A program made the position numbers and the translations under genes. Source: Stramenopiles sp. TOSAG23-6 (lineage: Eukaryota). From it: DNA of 20,000 bases. The stretch covers positions 50,927 through 70,926 of the forward strand of contig LT635912.1 of assembly GCA_900128565.1 (NCBI GenBank). The letters are read 5' to 3'. Shown here one piece after another: positions 1 to 20,000 of this stretch. The notes below the pieces were generated by a model. That model saw nothing but the letters and a program-made list of their open reading frames with translations. It ran no database searches and was not told the DNA's origin. Position 1 is the stretch's first letter; every line of letters starts with the position of its first letter.

Positions 1-2981
1 TACTCATGAGACAACTAGCATCATCGGAATTACCACAGTTGTCCCAGTCCATAAAACAACCATCTTTCTCTCGAAGTCTTTCAGTATTCTGATTCTGATT
101 ATTAAAACTGTCAATACATTTCTGGAGTACTGTAGTTGGAAAATCAGATTCGTGGCCAATACCCATTTCTATCCAAGTCAGTGCTCTTGCGGACCACCTA
201 CTATATGCCCAATATGCGAACTTGCCAGCCTTTGGGACATATCCACCAAAGAGATTAATCAATACTGCAAATATGACAGAAGTTAACGTAGCAAGTGACA
301 AATCAGTTTGAAATGCACAGCCAACTGCGTAACCCATTCCAGATACAGTCCATACAACACAGAGAGCCCATTGTAGATATGAGCTTGTTGGGCCTGCAAC
401 ATCTACAATGAGTGCTACAGGTGCGATAAAACAAACAGCCCCGATACACTGGAGGGGGAAATCAACCAAAACTACTGCCAGAAAATACGCAAGTTTATTT
501 ACACCAGCACTTGCTTCACGCCAAAACACAATCTTCTTTTGACCACAGAATGATACACAAGAGACAGATGCTGCACAGACACCAAGAGCCATTGTCATGA
601 AAAAACCAAATGGGCCCAATTCATTTCGAAGAGGTTCAAAGCATATTTGTGTAAAAATATTCTTTTTGTACAATTTGTTAGGTATGGAATTTCGTACGAA
701 AAAAGAAATCGAAATGGAAGAAAAATAGAAACATACATTTCCATTCAGCACCCGATGGGCAATTTTTCGAATATTCATTGGCACCTCCTCTTGGCTCAAT
801 TAACAGTGGTTCAGATCCAAAGATGATAGCAATAACAAAACCATCAAATACAAATGCAAGTAAGTCAAATCCCAATTGGTATGTGCGAAAAAAACGAATT
901 CTAATATTTTGTACAATAAAGGCTCTCAATTGAACAAAAAAAACAGGAGCTTCTTTCGACGTATCTGACATTGTTTTGTTGTTTTCTGGTGTAAGTTTTG
1001 TATCTGACTTCGTTTCCGTTTTCATTTCCTGAAATGCTTTTGATAATTGGTTAGATGCAAGACGAGATGCATTAATCTGGGATTTCACATTTTTTGTAAT
1101 AGTGCTACTTTTGCTTTGACCACCATCATTTTCAATTCTACCGCATAAAACATCCAACACAAAATCTGCGAAATTGTCATCAGAATCTTTTTGGTACCCC
1201 ATTTTTGCAAAGTGAGCTTCCGCGAGGCTAGCTTGACCTAAATAAACAGTTTTACCACCATATCCAAGTAACATCAATGTATCGATTTGATTGTATATTT
1301 CAAGCCGAGGTTGATGTAGTACACTCACGACAGTAACTCCACCATTTGCAATGGTTTTCAATGCTTTCATTACCCCAACTGCTGTACTCGAATCTAAGCC
1401 ACTCGTTGGTTCATCTAATAAAATAGCTAAAGGATCCATTACCAACTCTAATGCAATATTGACTCTTTTTTTCTGTCCGCCACTAATTCCTCTTCTGTAC
1501 TCATCTCCAATGATGACGCCTGCAACGTCTTGAATGCCCAGAACATTCAGTACAGCTTCGACTCTATCTTTAATACTTTTCTCTGATACTTGTCTTGCAC
1601 TTAAACGCGTTTTGGCAGAATGTGTTATGGCTTCTCGAACTGTGAGTTCTGGATGCATGACATCAGATTGAGGCACAAAACCAATACGTGACTTAAAATC
1701 TGTTAAACATCCTTCTTTTTCATTGATAAATACTGTACCATCAGTATGCTCCAATTTCCCCGCAATGATATTAAGAAAAGTAGATTTCCCCGCTCCACTA
1801 GCACCAAGAATACACATTAAATTACCAGGTTTAATTTCGCCATTCGTCCCAGATAAGCGAAACTTCTGCGATTGTTTTTTTTTGATACAACAACCACAAT
1901 ATTTATATTGAGTTGGAATCTTCAATGCGAGGGAATGAAATTTAATAGATATCGAATCCTTTTTCGTTGTAGAGATTTTTTCGACTTTACTTTCTTGAGT
2001 TTTATTTTCTTGAGTTCCGAGATTTTGCATTTCAACTTGTGGTTGTTGGGAAACTTTACTTTGTCCTTTTCGAAAAAAACATACCAAAAAAAATTGTCCG
2101 CCCACTAAAACAATTACAATAATAAGCAAAAATGGTTCTGAATTTGATTTTGCCCCTTCGGCGCAAATGGATAATTTCCCACATTTTTTTGGAGTTTTTG
2201 ATCCCCTTGGACAATAATAACCTTTAGGACAAATTGTTTTAGTACCTGCATATTTGTCACAATAGTACCCAGACGGACATGCCACAGGATATTGATTTTC
2301 CTCGCAGTGTAAGCCTGGAGCACATGCAGTCAATGTGACGATACATTGAGATAAATCTCCAGCTTCTTGATAGATGTGTCCTGGTTTATGAGACACCCAT
2401 TTATATGGATCCTTACAAGTATTTTGGGTGGTTGCAGAGGCGTTTCCTTCACAACTACCTAAAAAACTTCGAAATTCATGACTGTTCATTGTGGCTTTTG
2501 CTTTTGTGTTTTTTTTTTCTAAATCACAGACAGATAATAATTGCTCGCGAAAGAAAAGTATTAGAAATGTGTCCTTTTCGTGGGCAGAGTTAAAATCAGC
2601 ACCATCTATTGGCCGTGTGCACACAGCTTTTGGCTTCTGACTCATGGCATGATACAGTTCAAGAAGTAGCGTTCGTGAAGCAGTGACATCTTTACACATA
2701 CTGCACTCGTTAGAAAAGTTACTTGAATTATCAGAAACACTCGTATCACCCATTTTTTCAAAGAATATTCTTCCAAAACATGTATTTCGTTGATTTTGGT
2801 TCCCCATTACCCCAATAATATTTTGAACTGCTTCTTTCGTTGGACTAGAGGAAATGTTCAATTTGTTTGTTAGCCAAACTTGAACCTCTGTGAGACAGCT
2901 CGACGTAATAGAAGAATTAAGTTGACTCGCATTCACATTCAATATCACTAAACACAGAAGTAGCATTAAAATATATTCCAT
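1..2981 (-). CDS. ABCG-family half transporter with signal peptide and Cys-rich N-terminal ectodomain (ABCG24/28/ADP1-like); exons 2981-737 and 642-<1; runs off the window
   Basis: Walker A GASGAGKST, GFVPQSD, signature ISGGQKKRV, Walker B LLDEPTSGLD, H-loop VLHQP, CPSGYYC/CPKGYYCP repeats. After removing 643-736 the frame is open to base 1 and encodes a hydrophobic TMD (WK/CFEPLRNELG...VFWREASAGVNKLAYFLA...YSRWSARAL). Confidence 0.93.
643..736 (-). other. Non-canonical intron (94 nt, GTATGT...AAATAT), member of the repeated intron family
   Basis: Junction TGG AAA T|GTATGT...ACAAATAT|GC TTT GAA restores W-K-C-F-E. TACCTAAC at 684-677, 34 nt before the 3' end. The first AG after the motif gives TAA and is out of frame. 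Confidence 0.8.
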
Positions 2982-3260
2982 GGCGAAAGTAATCCAAATT
3001 TACTCGCAATATAAATTTTCTTGGGGAGTTTAGGTTCTTTTTTGTCGAAGAGAGAAACTTTCAAATTTCAGCAAGTGAAAATTTCAAAATTCGCTGAAAA
3101 TCAAATTTGAAATTCAAATTCAAATTCAAATCGAAATATAATTGACAAGGTACAAAAAAAACATATAAATGCAAGTCCCTTACCGCAGAATTTATACATA
3201 CGTAGATATTAGATATATTTGAGATACTGCTTTATTTTTTGGTAATTAAAAAAAAACGAA

Positions 3261-3299
3261 TTCTATCTATTCTGGAATCTTCTATCTATTCTGGAATCT
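3261..3299 (+). repeat. 19-bp exact tandem duplication (TCTATCTATTCTGGAATCT x2) just upstream of the ATG at 3309
   Basis: Direct reading: 3262-3280 equals 3281-3299. Confidence 0.9.
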
Positions 3300-3308
3300 G
3301 GATGAAAA

Positions 3309-5183
3309 ATGGTTCATTTCTTGACTACATTGATATATCTTTTGTATTATCACTGCATACATGCAAATGATGACCAATGTAATGAAGCTATAAAAAAGCA
3401 AAAGATAAACGTGAATAGTTCAGAGTGGAAACTGTCACCAAATCGTGTTGTTATGGACAGTAACTTTAAATGGGGTCGAGTTGTAGTTCCCATCTGGACG
3501 TCAGTATTTTTAGGCACTAATGATTCTCTCCCACACTTGGATAACACTTTACAAATTTTATCCTCATTTGAGAGTGATGAACTTGCGCTTGTTACAGTCG
3601 TAGGTGGTGGCGCTTATCTCCGTATTCTTGAACATATGGAATTTAGTTCTATTCATTTCTTTGACGCAAACGTTAACGAGTTAAGTAAACTTCGACTTGT
3701 TCATGACGATATTATCAAATATGACTATGATACATGGATAGCAAATGGTGGAATGCAGTCTGTAGCTAATAAAATTTCCTCACTGCGGGAAAAATTTTAC
3801 CTGCCAGCCCCACTTCTAACAGCAGGTGTAACCCTGCATCCTGCAACTGACTTTGAGTGGCCGATTCCTGGTCAGAGTAGTTATTATGATCCATTAGGTC
3901 GACGAAATCCACTTTGGTCAATTTTCCCTCCTTTATCTTACCCAGAGTATGCATGGAAACCAACTCGAAAGGGTTATGAGAGAGTACGCAGACAATTGAA
4001 ATATCGTGTGGCAAATGAATTTTATTTATCAGTTCCTTGTGGCATCATTCCACCTAATATTCTTTCAATAGTTTATGTTGATGGAATCAAAATTCCAAAA
4101 TCAACAATACGTGCGGTTTCACGTTCGGGTGATGCTATTGGTTTATGGTCGATGGTTGAAGACCAAAAATTACTCGGTAGGGGAAATAATTCAGATTGGT
4201 CAGATTCCCATTTCTTTTGGGAGCTCGCAGTTCGTTGGAGGATTGAAAGTAGCACTACAGTAATAAATAATACTAGAATCGGTATGGATAATATTGTAAA
4301 TAATGTAATGCATATTTGGGCAATTGAAGATATAAATATGATGGGAACAATCTACGATTGGATGTTTACAAGTAGCATGGAAGCATCGTCATTTGCTTCG
4401 TCTACTGTGACGACTTCAACACCCAATAAAAAGGAGACAGACAAATCTTTCAATGAAATCATTGTTTTCCATATTCTACTTGGTAAAGCAACTACTAAAA
4501 CGAATTGTTCAAAACGCGAAGAATTATTTATGAATGCGTTGATTCGAGCTGTAAAAGAACCACATGTAAGAAATGTTCTAGTTACTGAGCATAACACCTC
4601 TTCAAAACAATTTGATATTTTAACTAATCCATGTGCATTAAATGCAGCTAATATCAGAAAACTTATCAACAAAACATTGTCATTAACACCAGACAACATC
4701 AAAACGAACATAATAGCTACTCGTTTTCTACCTGGTGGTGGTACTCATGATAGAAATGTATTATTTGATATTGCAGTAAATGAAGGAATTCCATCAAAAA
4801 ATGGTAATAAAAAAGAAACTTTCCTTGAAGATAATAATAAATCTATGAGACCAGCAACTATTCAACTTCAGATTGATGAAAACACGAAAAAAAGGCCTAT
4901 TATTTTTCCATATGATGGGTCTGTAAAAGTATTACAATCTCTCGCGGCTGCTGCGTGCATGGATATTCCTCTTACTGATAAATCATGTATGTTTTATTTT
5001 TTTTAATTTCGATTTTTTTTTCGTACGCAATTTTGTACCTAACAAAAATATTGAATGTAAAATATTTTTCAAAATACATGCATAGACCAAATTATGAATG
5101 AAATGAAAAGAATTATAAAAGAAGATAAAAAATCTTCTGCGAGGGCGATTCGCCCTGAAAAAGAGAGCAAGGTGATTCAATAA
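3309..5183 (+). CDS. Hypothetical secreted protein; exons 3309-4986 and 5080-5183
   Basis: 565-aa ORF with a hydrophobic N-terminus (MVHFLTTLIYLLYYHCIHA). It runs into a family-type intron; splicing gives ...DKS/CIDQIMNEMKRIIKE...KVIQ* with TAA at 5181-5183. Confidence 0.75.
4987..5079 (+). other. Non-canonical intron (93 nt, GTATGT...ATACAT), member of the repeated intron family
   Basis: TCA T|GTATGT...AAAATACAT|GC ATA, flanked by a CATG direct repeat. TACCTAAC at 5036-5043. In-frame TAA inside. Boundary inferred from alignment to the other copies because no protein homology was available. Confidence 0.7.
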
Positions 5184-5257
5184 GGATAATTACAAAAGTA
5201 TTACTTTAATAATGAATAAGTAAAAAGTTTGTTAGTTTTGGTTTGTCTTCCTTTTTT

Positions 5258-5983
5258 TTAGTTTATCGTCTTTTTTTTCTTAGAAGGTAGTTTACTTGCA
5301 ATTGTTGGCTGAACTCCCTCATCCAATCTTTTACGCTTCTTCTTTGTAGTTTGTTTTTTCATACTTGTCTTTTCATCATCTTCAATATCGACGTGTTTTG
5401 ATAAATCTTTTTCTGTCTGAGCATTATCTTCAAGAGATAGATTATTATTATCTTCAAGAGATAGATTATTCAATATCCATTTAAGTAACTCATCACCTTC
5501 AATCATACCAAATCTTTCTATTAGAGTATAATTCTTATCATTTATTGGACGAAATGTTTCATACCCGTGGCGAAGTTCTGCCATACGATTGATGGTTCTT
5601 TGATCCCATCCAGGACGAATATTTCGCGAAACTGCTTCAAGAGCTTTTTTGTTTGATTTAGACATGAGTGAAATGACAAGAATTTTATAGCCTTTCTTCT
5701 CAGCCAAAGCTGCCAAAACTCGAAAGTTCCTGAGTTTCATGTTTAAATTATCTAATATTACCAAAGGCTTCTTATCCATAAGGGCTAATGTGCACTTGTT
5801 TGCACACCAAGGTATTGCACAATCACAGTGAGTGCTAAGTTGCCATCTTCGGCCTTTATTTTGTGGTTGTAGCCACCATCGATCGTTGCTACACACAACA
5901 GCACCATGGTCTTTTTCAAGTTGATTGGAAAGATAACTTTTACCCATTCCTGTTGTGCCTCTCAAAATAATAAAATTCTGCAT
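5258..5983 (-). CDS. P-loop kinase-like protein (AAA_33 / NEDD4-binding protein 2-like) with basic C-terminal tail
   Basis: N-terminal IILRGTTGMGKS Walker A, VCSNDRW, LVILDNLN motif typical of N4BP2/PNK-like kinases, KKKRKR NLS-like tail. Confidence 0.75.
   Translation of the reverse strand: MQNFIILRGTTGMGKSYLSNQLEKDHGAVVCSNDRWWLQPQNKGRRWQLSTHCDCAIPWCANKCTLALMDKKPLVILDNLNMKLRNFRVLAALAEKKGYKILVISLMSKSNKKALEAVSRNIRPGWDQRTINRMAELRHGYETFRPINDKNYTLIERFGMIEGDELLKWILNNLSLEDNNNLSLEDNAQTEKDLSKHVDIEDDEKTSMKKQTTKKKRKRLDEGVQPTIASKLPSKKKKTIN
5423..5470. repeat. 24-bp exact in-frame tandem duplication (encodes NNLSLEDN x2)
   Basis: ATTATCTTCAAGAGATAGATTATT at 5423-5446 and 5447-5470. Confidence 0.9.
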
Positions 5984-6266
5984 GTTGTTGGGTATATTAC
6001 AATTTGAAACAGTTTAATTATCAAATCAAACTGAAGATATATCTTATTTTCTTCAAAGATACTGATTTGAGATTGATTAGGCCTAATTCCGAGTGACACG
6101 ATCGCCGAAGATCGACTGTTTCTGTTTTTTTTCGTTTTTCGTGTCGGTGTTTGTTTGCCGTTTGTTGGTTCGGGAAAATTTGAATTCAAATTTCAGCAAA
6201 AATTTCAACAACAAAACAACACAACACACAATAAAGAGTTTTGAATTTATCGTTTTAAAACTTACG

Positions 6267-8749
6267 ATGAGATTGATGAGACTTTTTATATATCATTTTG
6301 CATTCGTTCACACTGTTGCAGCAGAAGCATCTTTTGTGTTAAAAAGTTATGAATGCGTCGCTGGCTTCGATTGTATGTATCAAAACAGTTGTGCTAATGA
6401 TGAAGGAGTTTCTTGTCCCATTGGCCGGTTCTGTGGCAGACCCAGTTCTTTCCCCAATGGACTTTTTCAATGTGATGGTGACCATAATCAAAGTTGTCCA
6501 GGTAGTGAATTCCCAGATGATAGGTGGAGAACTTCAAAGTGTGCCACGGGTGCATACTGCCCGACGACAGTAACAAATCAAAAATGTGAAGCTGGATACT
6601 TTTGCCCAAGAGGGTCTGTCAAAAGAGTCAAGTGTTCAATAGGTTCAATATGTGGCGAAGCATCACACTTTCCAATTGGATTTTTGCTGTTTGGTTTCGC
6701 AATACTTTTGTTTATTTTTTATATTTTATGCCGTCGCTTTTGTCTCACGACAAAAATTGGTCATACGATTTCAAATGATGGTTGCGAAAACAAAAAAGAA
6801 CTTCCAGTTTCTAAGAAACTGAAAATGCCATTTCCTCTTCAATTCGAATTTGATAATATATGCTGGAACTTTCGAGATAAGCCTATTCTTCGTGGTGTAT
6901 CGGGTTCTGTCAAAGCAGGTGAAATGATTGCAATTATGGGTCCATCAGGAGCAGGTAAAAGTACACTAGTAAATTGTCTAATGTCACGGTATACCCCCAG
7001 TACCGGAACAGTAACAATAAATGGATACAAAGATATTGAATTCTCTAGTATATGTGGAATAACTGGTTATGTCCCACAAGATGATATAATGTTGGCTAAA
7101 TTAACAGTCAGGGAGAATTTAATGCATTCAGCAAATACTCGAATAAATTCTCAAGTAAAAGCAAATTACTCTTCAAAGGCTCGTGTTGATTCTGTACTCA
7201 CCAGTCTAGGTCTAGAACATGTACAACATTGTATAGTTGGAGATACCCGTAAGCGTGGACTAAGCGGTGGTGAAAAAAAACGTGTATCGATTGGTCTTGA
7301 ACTAGTGGCTAGTCCGTCTGCAATTTTTCTTGATGAGCCTACGACAGGGTTAGACTCATCCGCGGCTGAAGTTGTGATTAATCAATTAAAACTCTTTGCT
7401 AATGAAGGACACGCGGTTATAGTAATTTTACACCAACCACGTGCTAGTATATTCAAACAATTCGATAATATCCTTTGCTTAACATCTAGAGGCGAAACAT
7501 TTTACTTTGGAAGTCCTCTTAAAGTTCGTGACTTTTTAAACCAAATACAAAATCCATGTCCATCGGGGAAAAATCCAGCAGATCATTTAATTGACATTGC
7601 AACGAAAAAGGGTAAAGTATCAATGACATCTACCCCAACAAGTATTTCGGATAAATCTAAAACAATCTCAGAGAATACAGTAAAATTTGAAGATCCAAGA
7701 TTAAACATCAAAGGAAAATTAGCGAGTTGGGGAGCCCAGTTTTTATTCTACTGGAAACGTTCCTGTGTACAACAGCTACGAGATTCCATGGCACTGTATC
7801 TTTATTGTGGTCTTGTTTTCCTCATGGTTGCTTCTCTCTCAACTGGTTTTTCACCTTTTATCCAAGAAAATCTGGAGAGTGTTTACAAACCACCCCTCGG
7901 CAAATCATTGAGAGATTATTGTCCACCACACAATAAAGCATGTTCTGGCAGCATTAACGACGATGGATTAATACAAATGATGTTTTTCTACTGTATGTCA
8001 ATTGGATCAATTGGAATGCTTGCTGCATCTCGAACATTTTACAGAAGTGAAATGATAGTAATGAAAAGAGAATCAAATATTGGTCTATCCTCATCTGCTT
8101 GCATCATTGCAAAAGTTTTTGCTGATTTAAATGTAATTATATTACTATCATTGCTCGCATCAGGACTATGGCTTGCCATGGGTTATCCGGGTGGACCTGT
8201 TCGTTGGTTTGTTCTTACTTTTTCATTGTTGTTTACTTGCTACGGATGGGGATATTTTGTTTCACAAATTGTATCCGATGATATGATTATGACAGTATGT
8301 ATGGTGTACGTTTTCATACTAAATTTTGTACCTAAGATTCTTTTCATCCTAGTGTTTCTCTTTTGCTCACATTTTCTAAAAATAATTTTACTTTTCGAAT
8401 GATTCCAGTTGTCATATTCTAATTTTACATTTTTTCTGACGTATAATTTAATTACAGCACTGCTCTTGGCTTATCTGCTTTTAATGGTGTGAATCCAAAA
8501 CTTGTGGATGTTCCTTGGCCGTGGAGAACCATCTGGGGCATGGGATATAGTAGGTGGATTTCCGAAGCCATATTTTCCACCTTTACAATGCATGATAGAA
8601 ACAGTGGCTTACCTGTGCAATTTGCTGCATCGAGATTTGGCTATGATGTCTCCGACAATCAATTTATTCTTGATATTGTAGTTGTAGTGATACAAGGAAC
8701 CTTATTGAGAATATTTACAGGATTTTTGATTGTTAAAAAGAATACATAA
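6267..8749 (+). CDS. Second ABCG-family half transporter with Cys-rich ectodomain; exons 6267-8305 and 8458-8749
   Basis: ATG at 6267 gives a signal peptide (MRLMRLFIYHFAFVHTVAA). CPIGRFC/CEAGYFCP repeats, GPSGAGKST, LSGGEKKRV, FLDEPTTGLD, ILHQP. The TMD is completed by the spliced exon (MV/TALGLSAFNGVNP...YSRWISEA). Confidence 0.93.
8306..8457 (+). other. Canonical GT-AG intron (152 nt) carrying a degenerate copy of the family motif
   Basis: ATG GT|GTACGT...TTCTGAC...TTACAG|C ACT restores the frame. Contains AAATTTTGTACCTAAG at 8321-8336. Confidence 0.85.
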
Positions 8750-8869
8750 AAGATTTAGAAATAAAAACCATCAGAGATATTTTTTAAATGGCTTAATATT
8801 CAGAGCACTTCTTCAGAATGCAGGATTTTATTTGAGTAAAGTTGAACCGTTTATAAATGACCTAATCGT

Positions 8870-10106
8870 TCACGCATTTGCTGCTATTTTATCTGCTTCA
8901 CCTACTATTATCGTTGATTCTGTCGATATTGCAAAATCTTCGGCCATATCCAAACTAGAACTTCTTTCTTCTTCTTTTGCTGCTTGTACTGTTGTTTCTG
9001 CTTCTTTCAATTTCAAATTTGCAACTGAAAAAACAAATGTTTCCTCTTCTTTCTTCCTCTGACAACGAAATTTCCAACGGACCTGATTTACATTTGTTTT
9101 ATCTGGATCATTAGATGTCACTTCGTATCCTTCAAATGTTGGTATACCTCCTAACCATTTTTGCTTTTTTGTTTTTGGAAATCCACTTTGAATTACGCTA
9201 TTTCGTGCAATTTCAGATATATCAGTTGTACTAAGGCACCATATCTGTCGAGCTATGGAATATTCTTCTAGTAGAGGTGCATCTGATAAATGAAATATCA
9301 TAGGATCATCCGTGGATAAACTAACATTTAACCCTCGCTTGAAGAATTTATAAAAGGGTTGATCTTCGTATCTCATGAATAGAACATTGTTTGATACTGG
9401 TGAAACTGCGAGCCCAATATTATCTAGATAGTAAAGATATTGCATAACTATATCATTTGCTAATCCAATTCCGTGATTAATTCCATTAGCCAATAAATAA
9501 GTAGTACAAAGATGATGTTTGGAACCACTTTCACCTGCATGTGGACGCAATGAAAAAGTATTCATTCCTTTAGAACGCCTTAATGAATTCAATCGGCTAA
9601 TATTTGCATAAAGGTAATATAATTGATAAGAATATGGAGGATTTTGTTCCGATGTCCAATCTTTTGGAGTTGTAACCTTTCCATCAATTGTTGCAAGAGG
9701 GAGATCAAGTAAGCTTTCATCATCGACAGAGTCAAATCCTGAAACATCTTTTAGAAATTCTGAAAGCTCCGGATATTTTTTTGGTTTCTCAGTTGCATCA
9801 AAAAGAGGTTGAAATATATTATATATAACTTCTTGATATGATGTTACTTTTTTCAATTTGTGAAATATGCGGTAAATGTATTGTGAAAAAATATTTTTAC
9901 TCGAAATATTTTGTTAGGTACAAATTTGGTATAGAAAAAAATTAAATTTAAATTTTGAAAACATATATTCTTGGAATTTGAATAAGCCATCGATTGTGTG
10001 GCTGCTGGACTAGCTTATTATTGAGAGCCCATTTTGCAAGTTTATCCCATGCATCAATGTTATCACCATAAATGGATAAACGATACTCTGCCCACGTCCA
10101 TTGATG
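8870..10106 (-). CDS. AMPD: AMP deaminase, C-terminal half only (upper boundary approximate); exons ~10106-9967 and 9875-8870
   Basis: AEYRLSIYG, WDKLAKW, WLIQIPRIY, GFDSVDDES, NPPYSY, LRPHAGESG, INHGI, SPVSNN and the SLSTDDP signature. No N-terminal half upstream on this strand. Confidence 0.92.
9876..9966 (-). other. Non-canonical intron (91 nt, ATATGT...ATACAT; can be slid to AT-AC)
   Basis: CCA AGA AT|ATATGTTTTC...CACAATACAT|T TAC CGC restores the AMPD motif QIPRIYRIF. TACCTAAC at 9920-9913. No usable in-frame AG nearby. Confidence 0.85.
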
Positions 10107-12565
10107 CAGACATCCGGCGATATTGCTGCAATTGTTTTTCAAATTGATTACTTTGTGTGTGCGTATCATTCAAAGAGTGTGACATATTTATATCAAAATT
10201 ATTTTTCATATATTGCGTCATTTCTTGTATTCCGCCAAGAGAACCACTACGCCCACGTCTTACAGGAGGCGATTTGACAAATTTTGACCCAGATGAAGAT
10301 GCACGAGCTCGTTCAGGCCAAAGTGAGTGCAAATCAGGGTCTGACGGAGTTCTGCTCATGTTAAAACTATTTCTTTGCTGACGAACATTTCTACTATTAT
10401 CTGGTGTTTGCCTCAAATAACCTCTTATTTGTGTAGGTGTTGTTGGTGAACCCAAAAAAGTTGAATTAGGATGTCGTGGGGGTGTTGACCCCAGAGGGGT
10501 TGGCAAATTTGATCCTAGTATCATTATAGGCGATTTTCTTGAGATATTAGTGTTAGGGGACGCATGTCCTATTTGTTGAAATTGCGGCGGCGTATTTATG
10601 GAACTGTTCAAACTTGTTGGCATGCTATTATCTGATGATGTGCTTAGTCTATGTACCCTGTCTGCAGTCATAGGAATACTATTATCTGATGACAAGCTTA
10701 GTCTATGCCTTTCAACGACTTGTCCGACAGTTAACGGTGCATTTGAATGTAATCTTTCTAATGAACTTGCAACACTGTATTGAATAGGACTTGATGATGA
10801 TGCAACCTGCATATTAGGATTCGATCTATTGCTTCCAGGTGATAAAGGGTGACAATTCCGAGGTATAGATAAAGGTAATGCAACAGACATTGGGGAACCA
10901 GCATCATTTTTTACATTGGTATATTGATTATGAGAACCAATACGTGATTGCTGTTGGGGTGACCAATTCTGTGCACTTTGAGATGGATAGGTTCTTTGAT
11001 GTTGAATCATATGAGGCATCATTGGCTGTCGTGGGGAGTAATGTGGACCTTCACTCATTGGAGAAGATATTGAAGGATGTTCCATCGACCGATCATTCTT
11101 ATACATGACTTTCATTTGTCCCATATTTTGACGTCGTGCAGAGTGTTCCATACCAGTAGATGAAGACAATGCACCTTGAGGTCCAGAATATTGTATATAC
11201 TGCTGACGAGAATTCGAATAAATATTATTTGGATTGGGTTGAAATTCAGGTTCAACATATTTTTGTGGTTCAATAGCAATATTATTCTGTTGGCCTCTTT
11301 GCTGTTGATAGTATCTATTCTGTACCATCATAGCAAATCCTGGTCCTAAATGGTCTGGAAGTGAATGTGGTCGGAAATGATCATGTATTTCGGAAAAATA
11401 TTATTTTTAGTAAAAATTTGTTAGGTACAAAATTTGGTACAAAAAACAAATTCGAAATTCAATTTTGAAAACGTACATTTGGTTGACTTGCTCGGTATAA
11501 CTCTGGAGGAGATCTATAAGGAGAGTCTAATCGCAAAGGGTAGCGATACATGAGATTATGATTCCCACTATGTATTACACTCTTAGTCTGTTGTTGTATA
11601 TCTTGGGTATAATGAGTATCATGATAGTGTCTTGCTTGGTTTCGTACTCTTGGGATATTTGAACTCTGTTTTTCTACCTCTTGATTAGGGTTAGGGTTAC
11701 GTTTCTTTCTCACGTCTTGGCCATCAGAAGCATCTTTCCCTTCCGGTCGATCAGCATAATTATTAATAATACAATCAGTGACATTTGGTTGTCCAAGAAT
11801 TGAACCTGAGAGATCAAATCCACAGTCTTTTGCATACATTACGCTAGCTTTTAATTCACCGAACGGTGTTCCAATGGGAGAAAAAAAATATTTAGAAGTT
11901 TCCCGATTTGAGTTAAAGCTCAATGGCAGAGAACCATCATTGCTCACTGCATTTGCGCCAAATTCATAATTTATATGTGTTGTTGACAAATTGGACCGTT
12001 TCGTATTTCGCATCAGACCATATGCAGGTAGAACTCTAACAAAAGCAAATACCGATCGAAGAAATATTGCAATTCGCTTATAAACCTGTCTTAGTTGAGA
12101 GGTCATATCTCCATACTTTTTTAAACTTAAGTCTGCACCACCAGATGGATCAAAGTGTAAACTCCAACGCTCAAGTAATATACGTGACGAAGTTGTGTTA
12201 TCATTGTGATTCTTGGCTTCTACAGAGGGTATTCCGACACCAGAAAAATGACCAGCACAAGCTCCACCCCCGCCCATCCAAAATATGTCACACTCTTTGA
12301 ATGGTAAATATGGATCATGCTTCCATGGTTCTAGCTCTTTGCGCACAAAATCTATGTTTTCTATGTGCAAATTAAATGGCGGCCTCGTCTTCTTCTTTTG
12401 AGTCCTTTGAGGAGACTGAAAACGAACACGAGATTGTAACACAATCTCCGATATTTTGAACAAAGATTCAAGTACAATACGTTCACACTTTCCTCGCTCA
12501 TTCTTTTCCAAAGCATTACCTTGTGCAGATTGCCGGCGTTTAATTGCACTAGAAGGTGCAGACAT
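10063..12565 (-). CDS. ATG13: Autophagy-related protein 13 (HORMA domain plus long disordered S/P/Q-rich tail); exons 12565-11477 and 11382-10063; extreme C-terminus probably chimeric
   Basis: HORMA motifs EIVLQSRV, FNL, LLERWSLHF, VYKRIAIFLRSVFAFVRVLPAY, SPIGTPFGELKASVMY, followed by a low-complexity region. Confidence 0.85.
11383..11476 (-). other. Non-canonical intron (94 nt, GTACGT...ATACAT)
   Basis: CCA AAT|GTACGTTTTC...GAAATACAT|GAT CAT joins the two ATG13 ORFs in frame. TACCTAAC at 11427-11420, 37 nt before the 3' end. Confidence 0.78.
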
Positions 12566-12818
12566 TATGAAAGTCCCACGTGGGTGGGAATGATTCCCGC
12601 TGTCCCCAAGAAATGCTTTTATAATATTTTATCAGTGAAATACTAATGTTGTCCGATTTCGAGATTGATTGTGTTTTGTCGAGAAGAACTTTCTTTTCAC
12701 CAAAATGAAACTGTTTTTTCCTGTTCAACTGACGCAACATTTTTTCATAATTAATTAAACGTATATTTGTGACAGTGATACATTTTACAACAATAGTTGA
12801 AATTAAAAGCGACGATAG

Positions 12819-13523
12819 ATGGATTTGGCAGAAGAATATGAACAATGTGGTCTTGGTGCATATCAGCCATATTACGACAAACTTTTACTTGAACACCCTA
12901 AAACTGTTGGCTCATCTGTGTCGTCGAAAGAACGTCGAGGTAAAACATATACTGGCTCTAAATTTGTGTATGGTGAAATACGATTTGACTCTTTTTCTCT
13001 GGCAATACATAAAGTTCGAATATATGGTGGATTGAAAACCCCCGGAGGAATTTTCTACGACCTTGGGTCGGGTATAGGAAAGCCATGTTTTGCTGCAGCT
13101 CTACTGCACGACTTTGACAAGGTCTATGGGATTGAAATGCTACCAGGTTTGAATAAAGTAGCTAATGACATACTCGTCAAATGGAACGAATTAGTCGGCG
13201 ATAAATATGCTTGGAAAGAAACCCGTGCTGTGAAAGAATTCAAGAAAAAAAAGAACAATATTGGTATAGAATTTATATGTTCGGATCTTTGCACGTTTGA
13301 TTGGACAGACGCGACTGTTGTGTTTGCTAATTCAACTTGTTTTACTGAAGAACTTATGGCAAAAATCGCAGAAAAGGCTCTATCCTTAAAGAAAGGCACG
13401 TTTTTCATTACATTTACAAAAGCATTGCCAAATGTGGAAGGTTTCTGGTACATTCATGAAGCTAAGTCATATACCATGTCATGGGGACCTGCGACGGTGT
13501 ATATACAGGAAAAGATTAGATGA
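12819..13523 (+). CDS. DOT1-domain (histone H3K79-type) SAM-dependent methyltransferase
   Basis: YGEI, FYDLGSGIGK (motif I), YGIEML, DATVVFANSTCF and MSWG motifs of small protist DOT1-like proteins. Confidence 0.8.
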   Translation: MDLAEEYEQCGLGAYQPYYDKLLLEHPKTVGSSVSSKERRGKTYTGSKFVYGEIRFDSFSLAIHKVRIYGGLKTPGGIFYDLGSGIGKPCFAAALLHDFDKVYGIEMLPGLNKVANDILVKWNELVGDKYAWKETRAVKEFKKKKNNIGIEFICSDLCTFDWTDATVVFANSTCFTEELMAKIAEKALSLKKGTFFITFTKALPNVEGFWYIHEAKSYTMSWGPATVYIQEKIR

Positions 13524-13556
13524 ATGAACCAAATAATTACAGTCGTCGTGAACAGC

Positions 13557-13608
13557 CCCAATAGACCCTAGGACCTAAAACCTAAAACCAATAACCTAAA
13601 CCCAATAG
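13557..13608 (+). repeat. Degenerate ~7-nt-period CCTAAA-like array, telomere-like, intergenic
   Basis: CCCAATAGACCCTAGGACCTAAAACCTAAAACCAATAACCTAAACCCAATAG; CCCAATAG occurs at both ends. Confidence 0.55.
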
Positions 13609-13732
13609 TCACCGGTTATACATTTAGAATAAAGTTATTAGATTTGAATAGCAATAATTCATAGTATTCTTTTGTTACATTGAATATATATATATTTCAA
13701 CAAAGCTTTTTTATATTATATATACTTAATAC

Positions 13733-15070
13733 TTAAGTAGAAGCGTCGAGAAAATTGTCAACATTTTTGATTTGCATTTCTGCAAGAAGTTTCAATGCTT
13801 CTTCGTCTTCAACGTCCAATTCACGCATTTCACTTAATAATTCTTGAGCAACTTCATAAAACCCAACTTCATTATCATCTAACATTTCACTTTCAGATAC
13901 ATCGGAATGATTTTCAATTTCTTTCTGACATACTGCCAAAGCTTCCGCATATGTTTCTACTCCGAATCTAGATTTCATTCCTTGCAATACACTACCCAGT
14001 ACCATATTCGTATTCAAGTCATTCAATATTTCGTGTTCTTTAGAATGCAAAATTTTGCTAGCTTCTGTTCCAGTTTGTGTTGAGTGTTGTAATTGTTGTG
14101 CGCTACAGATTTCATCTCTACTCTTCAAAGATCGCGCCCCACTATGCCATAAGCCAGGTCTCCGATTTAAACGTTCAGTTAATTCATCCAATGCACTCAC
14201 AGTAACTACGCACTGTTCCCGCAATAATAAGTCATACACGTTACAATTTTCAGAACTGATCACAGTCAAATACGGTATATTTCGGGAAGCCCAGTAAAAG
14301 TTTTCATCCACTTCATCAGTACCGCGAACAAATAGAATTCCTTTTTTACCGACCCAGCCATGAGCTTCGATGGCTTTAACCAAAGCTGACGTTTTTCGTG
14401 TTGGCATTACAGCTTCATCAACAACAGCAATATTACCTTCACGCCACTTGGCAGCTAAAGCCGTTTTAATTCCCAATTGAACTATCTTTTTATTCAATTT
14501 TTGTGACCAAACACGGGTTTGACGAGGACCGTGAGCCTTACCACCACCCCGCCAAATTGGTGAACGAATTGAACCGTGCCGGGCGCGTCCTGATCCTTTT
14601 TGTTTCCATGGTTTCCTCCCACCACCACTGACTTCCGCGCGATTTTTTACTTTAACTAGGCCGCCACTTTTGACTTGACGCCTGTTTGCACGCTGCCAGC
14701 AGACTACACGATGAACTAAATCACGGCGGATGGGTACTCCAAACACACTATTTTCTAGTGTTACTTCCGCGACTGGATCTGAATGTAGGGCACCAACTTC
14801 CATCTTCGCAACAGGCATGTGTTTCACGGTTGTGTCGGATCTTCCTAATGATGCGATGTCTAGCTGTCCAACATTGTCTGCAAAGAGGCTATCCACACCA
14901 TTAAACGTTTCTTCTGGTACTACAACGTTAGATGGAAGGTCAAGGTTGATAGAAGTCCTATTAAGGCTGGATTCAGTGGCAACACAGAAAAGACGCACTG
15001 TATTAACACGCAATCGCATAACTCTGGAACATGATGCACCAAGTAACTGGGAGATGGCGGGGGAAAACAT
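13733..15070 (-). CDS. MRPL4: Mitochondrial (bacterial-type) large ribosomal subunit protein uL4 with presequence and acidic C-terminal extension
   Basis: VFGVPIRRDLVHRVVCWQ, RAEVSGGGRKPWKQKGSGRARHGSIRSPIWRGGGKAHGP, SRNIP, NVYDLL; Arg-rich N-terminal transit-like peptide. Confidence 0.92.
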   Translation of the reverse strand: MFSPAISQLLGASCSRVMRLRVNTVRLFCVATESSLNRTSINLDLPSNVVVPEETFNGVDSLFADNVGQLDIASLGRSDTTVKHMPVAKMEVGALHSDPVAEVTLENSVFGVPIRRDLVHRVVCWQRANRRQVKSGGLVKVKNRAEVSGGGRKPWKQKGSGRARHGSIRSPIWRGGGKAHGPRQTRVWSQKLNKKIVQLGIKTALAAKWREGNIAVVDEAVMPTRKTSALVKAIEAHGWVGKKGILFVRGTDEVDENFYWASRNIPYLTVISSENCNVYDLLLREQCVVTVSALDELTERLNRRPGLWHSGARSLKSRDEICSAQQLQHSTQTGTEASKILHSKEHEILNDLNTNMVLGSVLQGMKSRFGVETYAEALAVCQKEIENHSDVSESEMLDDNEVGFYEVAQELLSEMRELDVEDEEALKLLAEMQIKNVDNFLDAST

Positions 15071-15294
15071 TGAACTTCAGTTGCAGTATATACAAGCTAC
15101 AAAAACAGTAGTACACGTACTAATAAGGTAAGGCAAAGTGTAAACTGGATGCAGTGTGCAAAGACACGTGCAAAAAAGACCGACACGTGGCAAAACGACG
15201 ACGACGCAGACATGGCCAAAACTAAGGCCTTACTTACTAAAAGTAAAAGTTATTATATTACTTTTACCGCTTTCTCTACGATAGTACCGTTTCG

Positions 15295-18200
15295 ATGGGA
15301 ATGAGTGGTGATTCTGCTAATGTAGAACAGCAACTTAAGGAAGTGAAACTTGCATTTGCGGACTATGACTGGAATACAGTCGGAAAGATCTGCGCAAGAC
15401 GTGAAATCGCACACTTGTCTATTTTTAAGTCATATGCTGCGCGAGTTGCCAGTATCCGTAGAGATTATACACGCGCAGTTGCACTTTGTGATGATATCGC
15501 ACGATCTTCTCCTACATGTACCGATCCAGAAACACTCTCAAATTTGCGACATATCTATAGCTTGAATGGCTTAGATCGGCAAGTCGTTGACCTGTATGAA
15601 AAAGCCTTAACAGCAGCAGCACCATCCTTTTCTTCCCAGAAAATCGATATTGATGCTGAACCTACTCTTGTCGAACGACTTTCTCGAGCTCTTTTTGATG
15701 CATACGGCAATGTTGGTTCGAGCAAAAAACAGCAGGCCATTGCGCTTAAATTATACAAAATGACTCAAAAGAAACAATACATGGTCTGGGCGACGACTTG
15801 TCTATTGCTTCAATGTCCATCTGAAAAATCTAATAGAGGTAGTGAACGTGAAGCTACTCTTAATCTTGCAATATCCATGCTACGCCGCGTACTTGATATC
15901 GATAATGTCTCATCAAGAGGTAATGATGGTGAATCTGTTCGCTTGTATGTTGAAACTTTACTAGAGTTAAAAAAGTTCCAAGACGTTTTGACAGTTTTAG
16001 ACTCTACAATTGTTCAATCAAATTTTAAACAAAAACAAGATGATACAAAAGATGAAGAGTCATCAATTACAAAAGATGACGCAGATGATGGTGCGTTTGC
16101 TGGTGCTTTTACATACCGCGAAAGTCTCCTAATTCGTGCTGACGTTTTATCGAAAATGGAAAGATGGAACGAAGCTGCTGATTCCAATCGCGAATTTCTT
16201 CTTGAAGTTGATGTGAATGACTGGGTTTCGTGCCGTTCCTTTATATTTAATACAAATTCTCTCTATAGTAATGCTTCTACGGAACTAGAGAAATCCACAA
16301 TTGATTCAAATTCTGATAAATTTGTTGAGTTATTACAAGAAAAAGCAAAATCTTTTCCATCTGTCCCGAGAGCTCCTTGTACGTTTTCATCATTTCAATG
16401 TCGATGTTTTTTCATACGAAATTTTGTACCTAACGATTTTTTTTATTTCTAAAAAAAAATATTTTTCACAATACTTTTCTTCTAGAAATTGCGTTAGCAC
16501 ATAGTCGCATTGTAAATCGTACCAAAAACAGCTCATGTGACATGTCTACTTCTATAGAAATGTTATGTCAAGCCTCTGGTGATTTTCTTGATTTAATCAA
16601 AAATTATTGGAAAATATTTGGTAAGAAATTATGCTGTTTTCTGGATGTTCAGCATTTTTTAAATATTTTAACCATTCCAACAGAATGTTCTCGGAATGAA
16701 ATGAAATGTTCTACAGAATTAGCACGAAACATCGATCAAGCTATTGGTCGTATAAAAACTGTTTTGTGTACAATGATAAATTCTTCACAATCAAACCGGA
16801 CAAACCCTAAACCTAATTCATCTTTAAAAGTTTCAAAAGAAAGGCTGAATAATTTACATTCTTACATTACTGCACAGCAAATCTCTCGATTTATTGGTTT
16901 ACATCGGTTAAATGATAACAATCAATTACTTGAAATTGCACGTGATCTCATTATTGAATGGAAAATAACATTAGATTTGAATTCTAAAAAATCTTCCATG
17001 GGAGATACTACTCTTAATAATATATCGAATGAAATTAAGAAATTAGATTTTCAGAAAAAGAAAGAAAACGAAAATCCTAATGATGACCAAAGAGAAGTTC
17101 AACACGGTGATGATTTGCTACTCCTTGCGGCGCATATTTTCATAGAATTATCTATCCGTTACACCTTCGCTGCTCAACAACTGTCAACATCTATCGAAGA
17201 AATGTCGAATAATAAAAGAAAAGGCTGGTCATTTTTAGTCGATGCAATTGTTGCAGCAGAATTGGGACTGAAACATTCCGCATTCAACTTTCAAATGAAG
17301 TTAGTAGTAATAAGAGTGTACAATGTACTGGGTGCATTTTCTTCCGCGATGGCTCGGTTTAAGGAACTCGATATTAAACACATTCAAATTGAAACTTTAT
17401 CATATGTTGCACTTGATAATTCTATAGCCACTGGATTTCATGACAATGCTATCCAGATGTGTGAAAGTATTGAATCATTTCATGGACATAGTTCACGTTG
17501 TATTCCAAAATATACTAGTACTGCATATAAATATGGAAATGTGTGTCAAGTGCGAGAATTCTTCAAGTTAAAAGAGAAATTAAGACGATCTCATCAATTA
17601 GTATCATCTCAAATTGATCTTTTTCATTTAAATATGATGAAACTTCCCAAATATTCTCACCAATGGCTTAAAGAACAATTTATGATGGGACATTTAAAAG
17701 ACATTCCCATGACAGAGCTCGAAAAACTTTTGGAAACAGAAGATAGAAATATTGCAAGTTCCTGGGATGCACCTATTCACGCATTAGCTGGAATTAAAAA
17801 TGCCGAAAACCTTAAAGGGAGTGCTACTCCTCAAATACAAAAGATTGAAGCTGTTGACTTGCGTATACGTTGTTTATATCCTATACTTTTAATGTTAAGT
17901 AGTTCGTTTACCGAAGAAAAACGTCTGAAAGAAAAACTTGTTGAATTTAAACGTTTGGTCAAAACATTACATGAAATTCGGATAATTTCTCCAAATAAAA
18001 CTCTTCATGAAAAGATTATGCAAGGTACATTTCAAATGAAATGTAATTGCTATGAGATAATTGCTGATGCCTTTGATATTGCATTAGATATTTCAAGTTT
18101 AATGGGAACAGAGCTGTCGTCTGATGTGAAGTCAGAATTGCGTAATTCTTTACAACCTAAATTAATATCTATGAGCAAACGTCTCACAAAACTGGCTTCA

Positions 18201-18854
18201 TTTTCAGCGTATTCATTATGTGAAGAAATAGATAGTAATCATGTGGATGAATTATGTACCGTAGATATGTCTACAATTGATTGGGGATTTCGTGCATGGG
18301 ATATTATAAAACATGGGGATTCCGTTCCTCTCTCTGCCTCGAATGATGGAAAAGGTTTACGAGGTTGTTGGATTTTTTTAATGCATTTGTCTACTTGGTT
18401 GACCAAATTGATACCTGAGTGGTACGGCGCATTACAAATTACTGGTTCCAAAGTAAAAGGAAAGAATAAAAGTAAAGGTAAAAATAAGAAAGGTAAAAAA
18501 AACAAAACAAAAAAATCTTCAAAAGGTAATGATGCTCCCATCTCTGCTCTAAAAAACATCACCGCTGTTCTTGATGATATACTTATGGGAATGGCAAAAC
18601 AAGCGAAAGTTGCTCAAGGTAAACTTGCAAAAGGTTTGTCTCCAAAACTTCAACTAGAAGGGTTAGGGTTAGGATCCACACCTATTTCTGTACTAGATAT
18701 AGCTTTGCAAGAATCTTCAGCAATGCTTGAAAAACTTCATCAAGTTAGAATGGAAACTTTGCGGAAAATTTCGTGTGATCATAAGGAAGCACTTTCGAAA
18801 GTGTTGAAAGCTGCGTTAGATGGCAGTGCGTTATTACGAAAAATTCGCAGATGA
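15295..18854 (+). CDS. NAA25: N-terminal acetyltransferase B auxiliary subunit (NAA25/MDM20); exons 15295-16378 and 16477-18854
   Basis: TPR-like N-terminus, KQQAIALKLYK...YMVWA, RAP/FLLEI, FGKKLCCFLDV, SAFNFQMKLVVIRVYNVLG, FKELDIKHIQIETLSY, AYKYGNVCQVREFFKLKEKLRRS. Confidence 0.88.
16379..16476 (+). other. Non-canonical intron (98 nt, GTACGT...ATACTT)
   Basis: GCT CCT T|GTACGT...CACAATACTT|TT CTT gives RAPFLLEIAL, matching the NAA25 RGPxLAxLEL-type helix. CTT direct repeat. The first downstream AG (16484-16485) creates TAA; a later AG (16497) is in frame but would delete the helix. Confidence 0.72.
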
Positions 18855-19019
18855 TTTTAATCATTTTATATAAAAAAAATATTTGTATTTTTTGTATTTT
18901 TAACGCATCCGTTTCGTTTATATCCAATTTAAATTGGTTACCGTTAAAATTTGTATCCTCTTTCATCACCTTGCAAGTTGTAACTAAAGTAGAAAAATAT
19001 TTTACAGTACTCTTAATCA

Positions 19020-19926
19020 ATGAGTTGCTGTCATGGTAGTCTCAGCACAATGATGTGGGATATGACAAAGAAAAAGATTTTGGATGAAAATGGTTCTGCA
19101 AAATTTTTCAAGTTGTCGTTATCCGAAGCTGCTGAAAGCTCAACCGCAGACGCACGAAAGGCGTGTGCAATGATATCTAAAGCACGTGAGCTAAGAGCTA
19201 AATACAGGAATAAATCAGGTGATCTGGGCTTTTCCTGTGATGAAAACTCACCGAGAAGGGGAGTGTTGAGTGTTGATAGCGGGGCGTATGAGCTTGTAAA
19301 TATCGCAGATCAAGTAATAAAAGATGACCTTCCAACAATGGGTGACTTTGTCAGTGACTATCGGGAACTTATATCAATCAGAAACAGTGGTGCGTGCAAA
19401 ACTCTTTGCCATAAGCGATTAACACTTTTAGAAACGACATTTGAAATACACAAATCTATGAACGGTGATCGAGAAATGGCACTTGAACGAGCTTCAAAAA
19501 CAGATTTTTATGGGATACATAAGGTGGACACACATGTTCATGCTGCAGCTGCAGTTGCAGCTCCAGATATTTTGTCTTTTATTAAAAAAAAAGTCAAAAA
19601 TTGTGGAGATGATGTGGTGGACGGCGAAAGGACACTAAAAGAAGTATATGATTCAGTTGGGGTTCCTCTCGACGAGCTTACTGTTGATGCAATTGACATA
19701 GCTGCTGATGCAACACTTTTCAATCGTTTTGATCACTTCAATGCCAAATGTATGTTTTCATCAGGAATTTCAAATTTTAATGATTTTCATTTCTTAGTTA
19801 TTACGTACAGTATACCTAACAAATTTCAAATATTAAATATTATTTCACAAAAAATACAATCCTTGTGGAAATGCATCACTTCGACGTTTATTTCTCAAAA
19901 CTGATAATGACGTGAATGGTACTTAT
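19020..19926 (+). CDS. AMPD: AMP deaminase, N-terminal half; exons 19020-19749 and 19856-19926, continuing past the window
   Basis: ELRAKY, KTLCHKRLTLLE, DFYGIHKVDTHVH (Zn-binding His pair), TLKEVY, FNRFDHFNAK/YNPCG...LRRLFLKTDN. Confidence 0.92.
19750..19855 (+). other. Non-canonical intron (106 nt, GTATGT...AAAAAT)
   Basis: GCC AAA T|GTATGT...CACAAAAAAT|AC AAT CCT restores the conserved FNAKYNPCG. TACCTAAC at 19813-19820. No AG between that motif and the next donor at 19927. Confidence 0.9.
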
Positions 19927-20000
19927 GTATGTTGTATTTTTTTTTAATTTCGAATTTATTTTTCATACGAAATTTTGTACCTAACGATTTTTTTTTGAAA
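19927..20000 (+). other. Family-type intron, truncated by the window end
   Basis: ACT TAT|GTATGT donor; TACCTAAC at 19978-19985; 37 nt identical to the NAA25 intron. Confidence 0.85.

Follow-up and report, generated by a model that had tools for sequence, protein, structure and literature searches.

The DNA considered here is a 20,000-nt stretch of contig LT635912.1 (positions 50,927 to 70,926) from Stramenopiles sp. TOSAG23-6, which we call the window, and the subject is a family of short introns within it, most of which end without AG. The window is 36% GC and holds eukaryotic genes tightly packed on both strands. Pfam searches with the window proteins gave two ABCG-type transporters, an AAA_33 P-loop protein, an ATG13-like protein, a DOT1-like methyltransferase, a ribosomal L4-family protein, and two separate AMP deaminase (AMPD) pieces. 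The NAA25 gene was named through PDB and orthologue matches, and gene B, the host of intron 2, encodes a secreted-looking protein without a Pfam family. Eight related introns interrupt six reading frames, several unrelated genes among them, and all eight lie in sense:

Intron 1: 643..736, minus strand, 94 nt, GTATGT...ATAT, in the ABCG-type transporter gene A
Intron 2: 4987..5079, plus strand, 93 nt, GTATGT...ACAT, in gene B
Intron 3: 9876..9966, minus strand, 91 nt, ATATGT...ACAT, in the C-terminal AMPD piece
Intron 4: 11383..11476, minus strand, 94 nt, GTACGT...ACAT, in the ATG13-like gene
Intron 5: 16379..16476, plus strand, 98 nt, GTACGT...ACTT, the TT case, in NAA25
Intron 6: 19750..19855, plus strand, 106 nt, GTATGT...AAAT, in the N-terminal AMPD piece
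Intron 7: 19927..20000, plus strand, 5′ part only, the rest being cut off by the window end, in AMPD
Intron 8: 8306..8457, plus strand, 152 nt, GTACGT...TTACAG, canonical GT-AG, in the ABCG gene E

The original prediction was of six complete interruptions, 91-106 nt long and in sense, beginning GTATGT, GTACGT, or ATATGT and ending in AT or TT but never in AG. A direct read of the sequence confirms the coordinates, lengths, and orientation, and a recount gives the same ends: GTATGT in three, GTACGT in two, and ATATGT in one at the 5′ side, with AT in five, TT in one, and AG in none of the six at the 3′ side. The U2-type 5′ consensus GTAYGT is thus present in five of the six complete introns, ATATGT standing in its place in the sixth, and introns 7 and 8 likewise begin GTAYGT. 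The boundaries can be slid to the left by 2, 3, 2, 2, 3, and 4 nt in introns 1 to 6, respectively, leaving the product unchanged; no slide within this permitted range gives an AG 3′ end to any of the six.

The internal motif that had been predicted 34-42 nt ahead of the intron end is TACCTAAC in all six complete introns. This 8-mer has seven matches in the window, against 0.34 expected, and none of 200 shuffles gave seven. Every match lies inside a family intron and in sense, so that all seven family copies carry the motif. It contains a CTAAC core and is followed by a T-run. The combination of GTAYGT, a CTAAC-containing motif, and a T-run points to the major spliceosome, by which the introns are probably removed. 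The spacing of motif and cut varies over 34-42 nt and hence cannot serve as a ruler; the sole constant near the 3′ cut is a conserved CACAATAC-like end followed by W-T. Intron 7 has the family 5′ end, the internal module, and TACCTAAC; its upstream exon ends in AT, and AMPD homology breaks off at 19926-19929.

It had also been noted that the end of each intron repeats the end of the exon upstream. The four-letter pairs read as first described: the last two letters are the same in six of six, and the third letter in three of six. The accompanying claim, that the terminal dinucleotide co-varies with the exon, depends on one informative pair, TT/TT, the other five matching pairs being AT/AT. By our own arithmetic, the chance that a single deviant exon end and a single deviant intron end coincide with the same letter is about 1/6 × 1/3, or ~0.06.

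By comparison with homologues, removal of the introns restores the coding sequence exactly at four junctions, those of introns 2, 3, 5, and 6, where the support is at residue level. Exact restoration of AMPD and NAA25 motifs had been predicted; the AMPD homologues are indeed contiguous over introns 3 and 6, as is the NAA25 orthologue P0121 over intron 5. At the Cys-Ile join made by removing intron 2, the homologues P0124, P0125, and P0151 share a conserved Cys, with Ile or Val as the next residue. For intron 3, both AMPD repeats in seven of eight AMPD homologues give two tblastn segments abutting across the join (in P0001, for example, q991-1039 and then q1038-1333), P0005 and P0006 being clear for one repeat only, and the Pfam AMP_deaminase profile resumes at position 349. 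For intron 6, each of the eight homologues tried with tblastn has one or more AMPD repeats that continue unbroken over the join; in P0001, residues 56-296 reach 19748 and the match to residues 293-321 starts at 19843, residue 297 falling on the split codon. For intron 5, P0121 aligns contiguously, q3-327 on 15325-16377 and q328-1052 on 16476-18848. P0121 is the only close NAA25 orthologue found (about 37% identical), and the join is spanned by the conserved block RAP + (F/Y)LLEIALA; matches of NAA25 to solved structures end well short of this junction on both sides.

For the two remaining complete introns, the grounds are of another kind. The frames on either side of intron 1 demand a length of 1 mod 3, and the in-window paralogue gene E aligns over the join with no gap, at low identity; among transcript-derived protein fragments, none scored over this junction (one candidate). 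Intron 4 interrupts a low-complexity region of the ATG13-like gene, where frame logic applies and there is no homology across the join, and its junction has the weakest support among the introns.

If these ends lack AG, are there AGs nearby that might serve instead? GT..AG alternatives were examined with the same donors, requiring an in-frame and stop-free product. Such options exist at +72 for intron 1, +6 for intron 2, +63 and +81 for intron 4, and +21 for intron 5, and within intron 3 the AG at -24 is in frame. The +6 option of intron 2 would remove the conserved Cys, the -24 AG of intron 3 would add eight residues that the homologues are without, and in intron 5 the +9 AG leads to a stop codon and the +21 AG deletes the conserved NAA25 block. 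The internal AG of intron 1, 19 nt before the end and 15 nt past the branch motif, is out of frame, and an RNA-library contig that carries gene A exon 2 up to 641 excludes its +72 AG. No AG occurs in the last 45 nt of intron 6 nor in the 30 nt that follow it. In this intron family, AG is neither required nor, where present, selected. The original prediction had named two ordinary ways in which the missing AGs might be explained. One, canonical AGs downstream, is excluded, or the AGs are skipped, everywhere except at intron 4; as to the other, consensus error, no differing letters are found at the twelve boundary positions among the rows listed.

The introns are copies of one sequence family. 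Pairwise identity among the six complete introns is 56-79%, and their GC content is 16-24%, against 37% outside them. The alignment has common modules: a 5′ GTAYGTTTTCA, then a AATTTCGA-like block, a core resembling TTTTCRTACGAAATTTTGTACCTAAC, and a 3′ module made of a AATATTTTT-like run, CACAATAC, and two more letters. Intron 8 combines the family 5′ module, with an internal deletion, and an unrelated 3′ half ending in TTACAG; over 34 nt, its identity to introns 5 and 7 is 85%. Its exon end, GT, is unlike its intron end, AG, and the frame of gene E stays open and aligned to its paralogue A only with the GT-AG pair of this intron. Since the frame and the paralogue thus argue that intron 8 is spliced GT-AG, the organism can apparently also use AG, although the non-AG type makes up seven of the eight introns within the window.

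No conserved structure was detected: the consensus fold has 0 pairs, and the single-sequence z-scores run from -1.72 to +0.75. On these predicted folds, pairing of the ends is not what defines the cut. An Rfam search of the window gave 0 matches. A search of public metagenome contigs for further copies with a short, 15-letter pattern returned 119 stretches, all attributable to chance and without family context, and a longer gapped family pattern found 0 stretches in viral contigs and two in prokaryotic genomes, both by chance.

Public sequencing runs bear on both copy number and splicing. Of thirteen runs listed, seawater metagenomes are the best independent sources, and small shares come from four marine metatranscriptomes. 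Where RNA does not cover the window, it bears on the introns neither way. Mapped to the whole window were the RNA libraries X6, X7, and X10, of which X7 and X10 are one study, and the DNA metagenome X3, whose depths are sums across all organisms of the sample. In X3, the bins with introns 1 to 7 have depths of 389.7, 6483, 77, 1425, 2857.6, and 9657.4, the bin with intron 8 has 21.8, and bins without an intron have 3.9-10.5. In this metagenome, the intron family behaves as a high-copy repeat. As expected of such a repeat, X3 DNA contigs break 22-65 nt inside the introns; at intron 1, they extend 60-65 nt inward from both sides. At least 49 X3 contigs with unrelated flanks have their first matching position at 9876, exactly where intron 3 has its final letter, and 30 lose their match at 11478, two letters before intron 4 begins. 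These edges argue that the repeated unit runs from an AT ahead of GTAYGT through the terminal AT.

The RNA contigs behave otherwise. Record 1 of X10 ends at 641, by intron 1, and is followed by 134 unplaced letters; record 25 of X7 starts at 736, the intron 1 edge, after 15 unplaced letters; and record 30 of X7 runs from 11695 down to 11476, the intron 4 edge, before 42 unplaced letters. The positions 641, 736, and 11476 coincide with edges of introns 1 and 4 within a one-letter ambiguity. The letters past these edges do not fit the intron, whereas X3 DNA contigs enter it there by 27-65 nt; record 14 of X3, for instance, continues to 11450, into intron 4. A strain marker, 637 C>G, is common to record 1 of X10 and to the X3 DNA contig that continues into intron 1. 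This contrast between RNA and DNA at introns 1 and 4 offers a good hint that splicing takes place at the edges claimed.

We propose that these are probably introner-type mobile introns whose 3′ cut falls after a duplicated 2-nt target site. A repeat family in unrelated genes, with its own splicing signals and a flanking dinucleotide, is what suggests an introner. The element would be short (about 91-106 nt), AT-rich, and mobile, and would have entered many protein-coding genes, in sense, in a marine and probably stramenopile-like protist. Each copy would bring a yeast-like 5′ site, GTAYGT, the branch-site motif TACCTAAC, a T-rich tract, and a CACAATAC-like end. Insertion most likely duplicates a target dinucleotide, AT in most cases and TT in one, which would place the element between two copies of the dinucleotide. 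The major (U2-type) spliceosome would then cut before GTAYGT and after the second copy, skipping internal AGs downstream of the branch motif, so that the element and one copy of the duplication would be removed together and the original reading frame regained to the letter. Because the duplicated target would be AT or TT, the resulting intron would have no 3′ AG. The register of cleavage, whose ends can slide by 2-4 nt, is likely the one given here. The matching exon and intron ends probably come from a duplication, most simply the target-site duplication of a mobile intron, and a relaxed second-step or U2AF-type recognition may accept the CACAATAC-like end followed by W-T. Of the original prediction, the precise removal of real interruptions with AT or TT ends and nearby AGs left unused still holds; a rule of exon identity and an unknown splicing system are unneeded, since with a repeat family that occurs in several unrelated genes and at very high copy in an independent metagenome, duplication is the simplest reading. 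As for a second splicing step that dispenses with AG on a genomic scale, in which thousands of mobile introns would be cut after a duplicated W-T and intervening AGs ignored, we consider the chances to be even.

Several points weigh against this proposal. Only eight copies are available for comparison, and the duplication rests on the six matching dinucleotides, with the single informative case described above. Terminal inverted repeats amount at most to GTAT/ATAC (4 nt), are not present in every copy, and are paired in the predicted fold by intron 2 only. No empty site was seen in the mapped runs, and we know of no autonomous element for this intron family. Intron 8 shares the 5′ module, yet it has neither matching ends nor a non-AG end. 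The 3′ end of intron 4 is placed by frame logic and family analogy alone. On the side of the transcripts, 15 of 119 joints are listed, and all of these join intron copy to intron copy, none exon to exon; the tails of the RNA contigs (134, 15, and 42 letters) are known by length alone; and the family stands at high summed depth in the RNA libraries, up to about 2000, which indicates that retention or carried-over DNA is present.

The same mRNA product would result if both cuts lay 2 nt upstream, a slide that is permitted in six of six. The introns would then belong to an AT-AC class (AT + GTAYGT ... ATAC), handled by a minor-type or AT-AC-tolerant spliceosome. Introns 2, 3, and 4 would indeed become AT...AC, but the other three would become AT...AT, TT...AC, and AT...AA. 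U12-type introns are marked by a conserved ATATCCTT/GTATCCTT at the 5′ site and by a TCCTTAAC branch site near the 3′ end. Here, that 5′ consensus is absent, the 5′ ends being GTAYGT or ATATGT, and 34-42 nt separate the branch-like motif from the end, against the roughly 10-15 nt of U12 introns. In addition, the conserved GTAYGT would sit at +3 to +8 without a role, when it is at +1 to +6 that it forms a standard U2-type 5′ site. We regard this register as unlikely. It is tempting to ask, rather, whether the match of exon end and intron end is itself functional, the 3′ site being chosen because the final letters of the 5′ exon recur in it. The identity of the last two letters throughout, the TT case included, would fit, as would the fact that neither AG, a fixed distance, nor a fold accounts for the 3′ site. 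However, only one case is informative, intron 8 splices with unmatched ends as judged by frame and paralogue, and we know of no spliceosomal step that compares the sequences of exon end and intron end. Target-site duplication gives the same pattern and is documented in other mobile introns (PMC11282704). A functional match thus appears quite improbable.

Two more conventional accounts remain to be weighed. Ordinary GT-AG splicing at nearby AGs, with slightly different products, draws on the in-frame, stop-free options at introns 1, 2, 4, and 5 and on the in-frame AG at -24 in intron 3. Against it are the conserved residues that would be lost or gained at introns 2, 3, and 5, the lack of any AG by intron 6, and the RNA-library contig that reaches 641 at intron 1; it is largely refuted, only intron 4 being left to it, and we give it very little credence. 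Alternatively, the introns might be removed or absent at the level of DNA, through insertion polymorphism or programmed excision, or their non-AG ends might be assembly errors. Terminal direct repeats of which one copy is left behind would also suit precise excision of DNA, and RNA libraries may contain DNA. On the other hand, DNA excision does not predict the sense orientation in eight of eight nor the splice and branch signals, and the X3 DNA contigs that carry the strain marker of the RNA contig run into intron 1. Assembly error would have to make the same end at six independent loci, and boundary letters do not differ among the rows listed. This account, too, we hold to be highly improbable.

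The host genes have features of their own. The ABCG-type half-transporters are divergent and stand head to head:

738-2981, minus strand: ABCG-type half-transporter
6267-8749, plus strand: ABCG-type half-transporter

Both have a Cys-rich N-terminal extension ahead of the ATPase domain, and the intron positions differ between the two. When the strain in metagenome X3 is compared with the window, stretches of 2, 2, 4, and 19 nt are left out within 3049-3261, the spacer with the divergent promoters of genes A and B, whereas in coding regions there are scattered substitutions only. The AAA_33 gene contains a perfect 24-nt tandem duplication at 5423-5470, in frame (eight codons). Telomere-like short runs of the CCTAAAA/CCCTAAA type occur at 13540-13610, in the spacer that follows the DOT1-like gene, and a telomere-like GGTTAGGGTTAGG occurs at 18655-18670 within the NAA25 coding sequence. 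After P0121, the next-best matches of NAA25 are to oomycetes, and the top match of AMPD is only about 53-55% identical.

The AMPD gene is split. One piece lies at 19020-19926 on the plus strand and the other at about 10172-8873 on the minus strand, with about 9 kb between them. The N-terminal piece corresponds to Pfam profile positions 99-264 plus a 23-residue exon and ends at intron 7; the C-terminal piece corresponds approximately to positions 300-624; and the homologues leave only about 13-20 residues unplaced between the two. This arrangement may reflect a genuine inversion, an additional and truncated copy, or a wrong join made at the repeated intron 7. The best of the AMPD homologues (P0001-P0009) are 1200-1800 residues long with two tandem AMPD domains, so each piece aligns twice to them, and the gene in the window looks single-domain. 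A 26-nt inverted repeat, 96% complementary, pairs 10164-10189 with 12281-12306. One arm is within the ATG13-like coding region, and the other is where the open frame of the ATG13-like gene enters the C-terminal AMPD piece with no stop or spacer; near 10130, the reading frame shifts by one. The transition at this repeat looks like a rearrangement or chimera breakpoint.

How do these introns compare with known systems? The introners of Micromonas pusilla and Aureococcus anophagefferens, the latter also a stramenopile, are likewise described as short, non-autonomous, near-identical introns in many unrelated genes, with a short target-site duplication, one splice site coming from the element and the other from the duplication (PMC11282704); in Micromonas, it is the 3′ AG that is taken from the duplication (PMC11282704). 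As far as described in PMC7789003, they differ in having canonical AG ends and clear terminal inverted repeats of constant length. In the present family, by contrast, the presumed duplicate is AT or TT, there is no AG, and the inverted termini are at most 4 nt. The introns of Fritillaria borealis derived from miniature inverted-repeat transposable elements (MITEs) also repeat the exon end as the intron 3′ end, an exonic TAC being reused as the 3′ splice site (PMC11282704), and they have non-AG 3′ ends as well, on a genomic scale and with a modified major spliceosome (PMC11282704, PMC13326754). However, their 5′ end departs from the canonical form too, the commonest pairs of ends being AG-AC and AG-AT, and they contain inverted repeats, whereas the present family has a 5′ site and a branch motif of canonical form and strong conservation. 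In Fritillaria, U2AF is duplicated. For relaxed 3′ recognition, the tunicates offer a precedent in a divergent U2AF heterodimer, as reported in PMC13326754.

The introners of Amoebophrya are repeated introns of a marine protist too, with ambiguous ends and 3-5 nt direct repeats over the exon-intron borders (PMC7789003). They are distinguished by inverted repeats of 8-20 nt, a hairpin joining the ends, and the lack of conserved terminal dinucleotides; the introns described here have no predicted structure, and their 5′ end is fixed as GTAYGT. Nonconventional introns of euglenids share non-GT-AG borders and duplication-like junction repeats (PMC11282704), but are defined by a secondary structure that pairs the ends and are without a pyrimidine tract, neither of which applies to the present family. 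The likeness to U12-type AT-AC introns goes no further than the three copies that read AT...AC after a 2-nt slide, the U12 consensus and branch distance being absent. In the literature searched, with subscription journals and supplements outside the search, we found no description of GT...AT introners or of this intron family. The combination of canonical 5′ and branch signals with the lack of both AG and end-pairing was not met there, although the logic itself is known from Micromonas and Fritillaria.

For the organism, which is marine, abundant, and uncultured, a practical consequence, if RNA bears the family out, is that gene finders and mappers restricted to GT-AG would mis-model most of its intron-bearing genes, leaving them truncated, split, or frame-shifted, and published intron statistics of such genomes could be affected. 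Automatic models of uncultured marine stramenopiles, for example, gave 'few but long introns' in PMC5269757, which may not concern this organism.

If confirmed by RNA, the family would be a clean natural experiment on 3′ splice-site choice, with textbook 5′ and branch sites and the AG alone missing; in the cases so far, Fritillaria, Amoebophrya, and the euglenids, both ends are scrambled or splicing is hairpin-dependent. A second step free of AG would, if true, imply remodelled recognition of the 3′ site, in U2AF, Prp18/Slu7, or the proofreading by Prp8 or Prp22, and an origin independent of tunicates and Amoebophrya, with release from the rule confined to the 3′ end. Confirmation would add a lineage where mobile introns have spread through the tolerance of the spliceosome for any duplicated dinucleotide.

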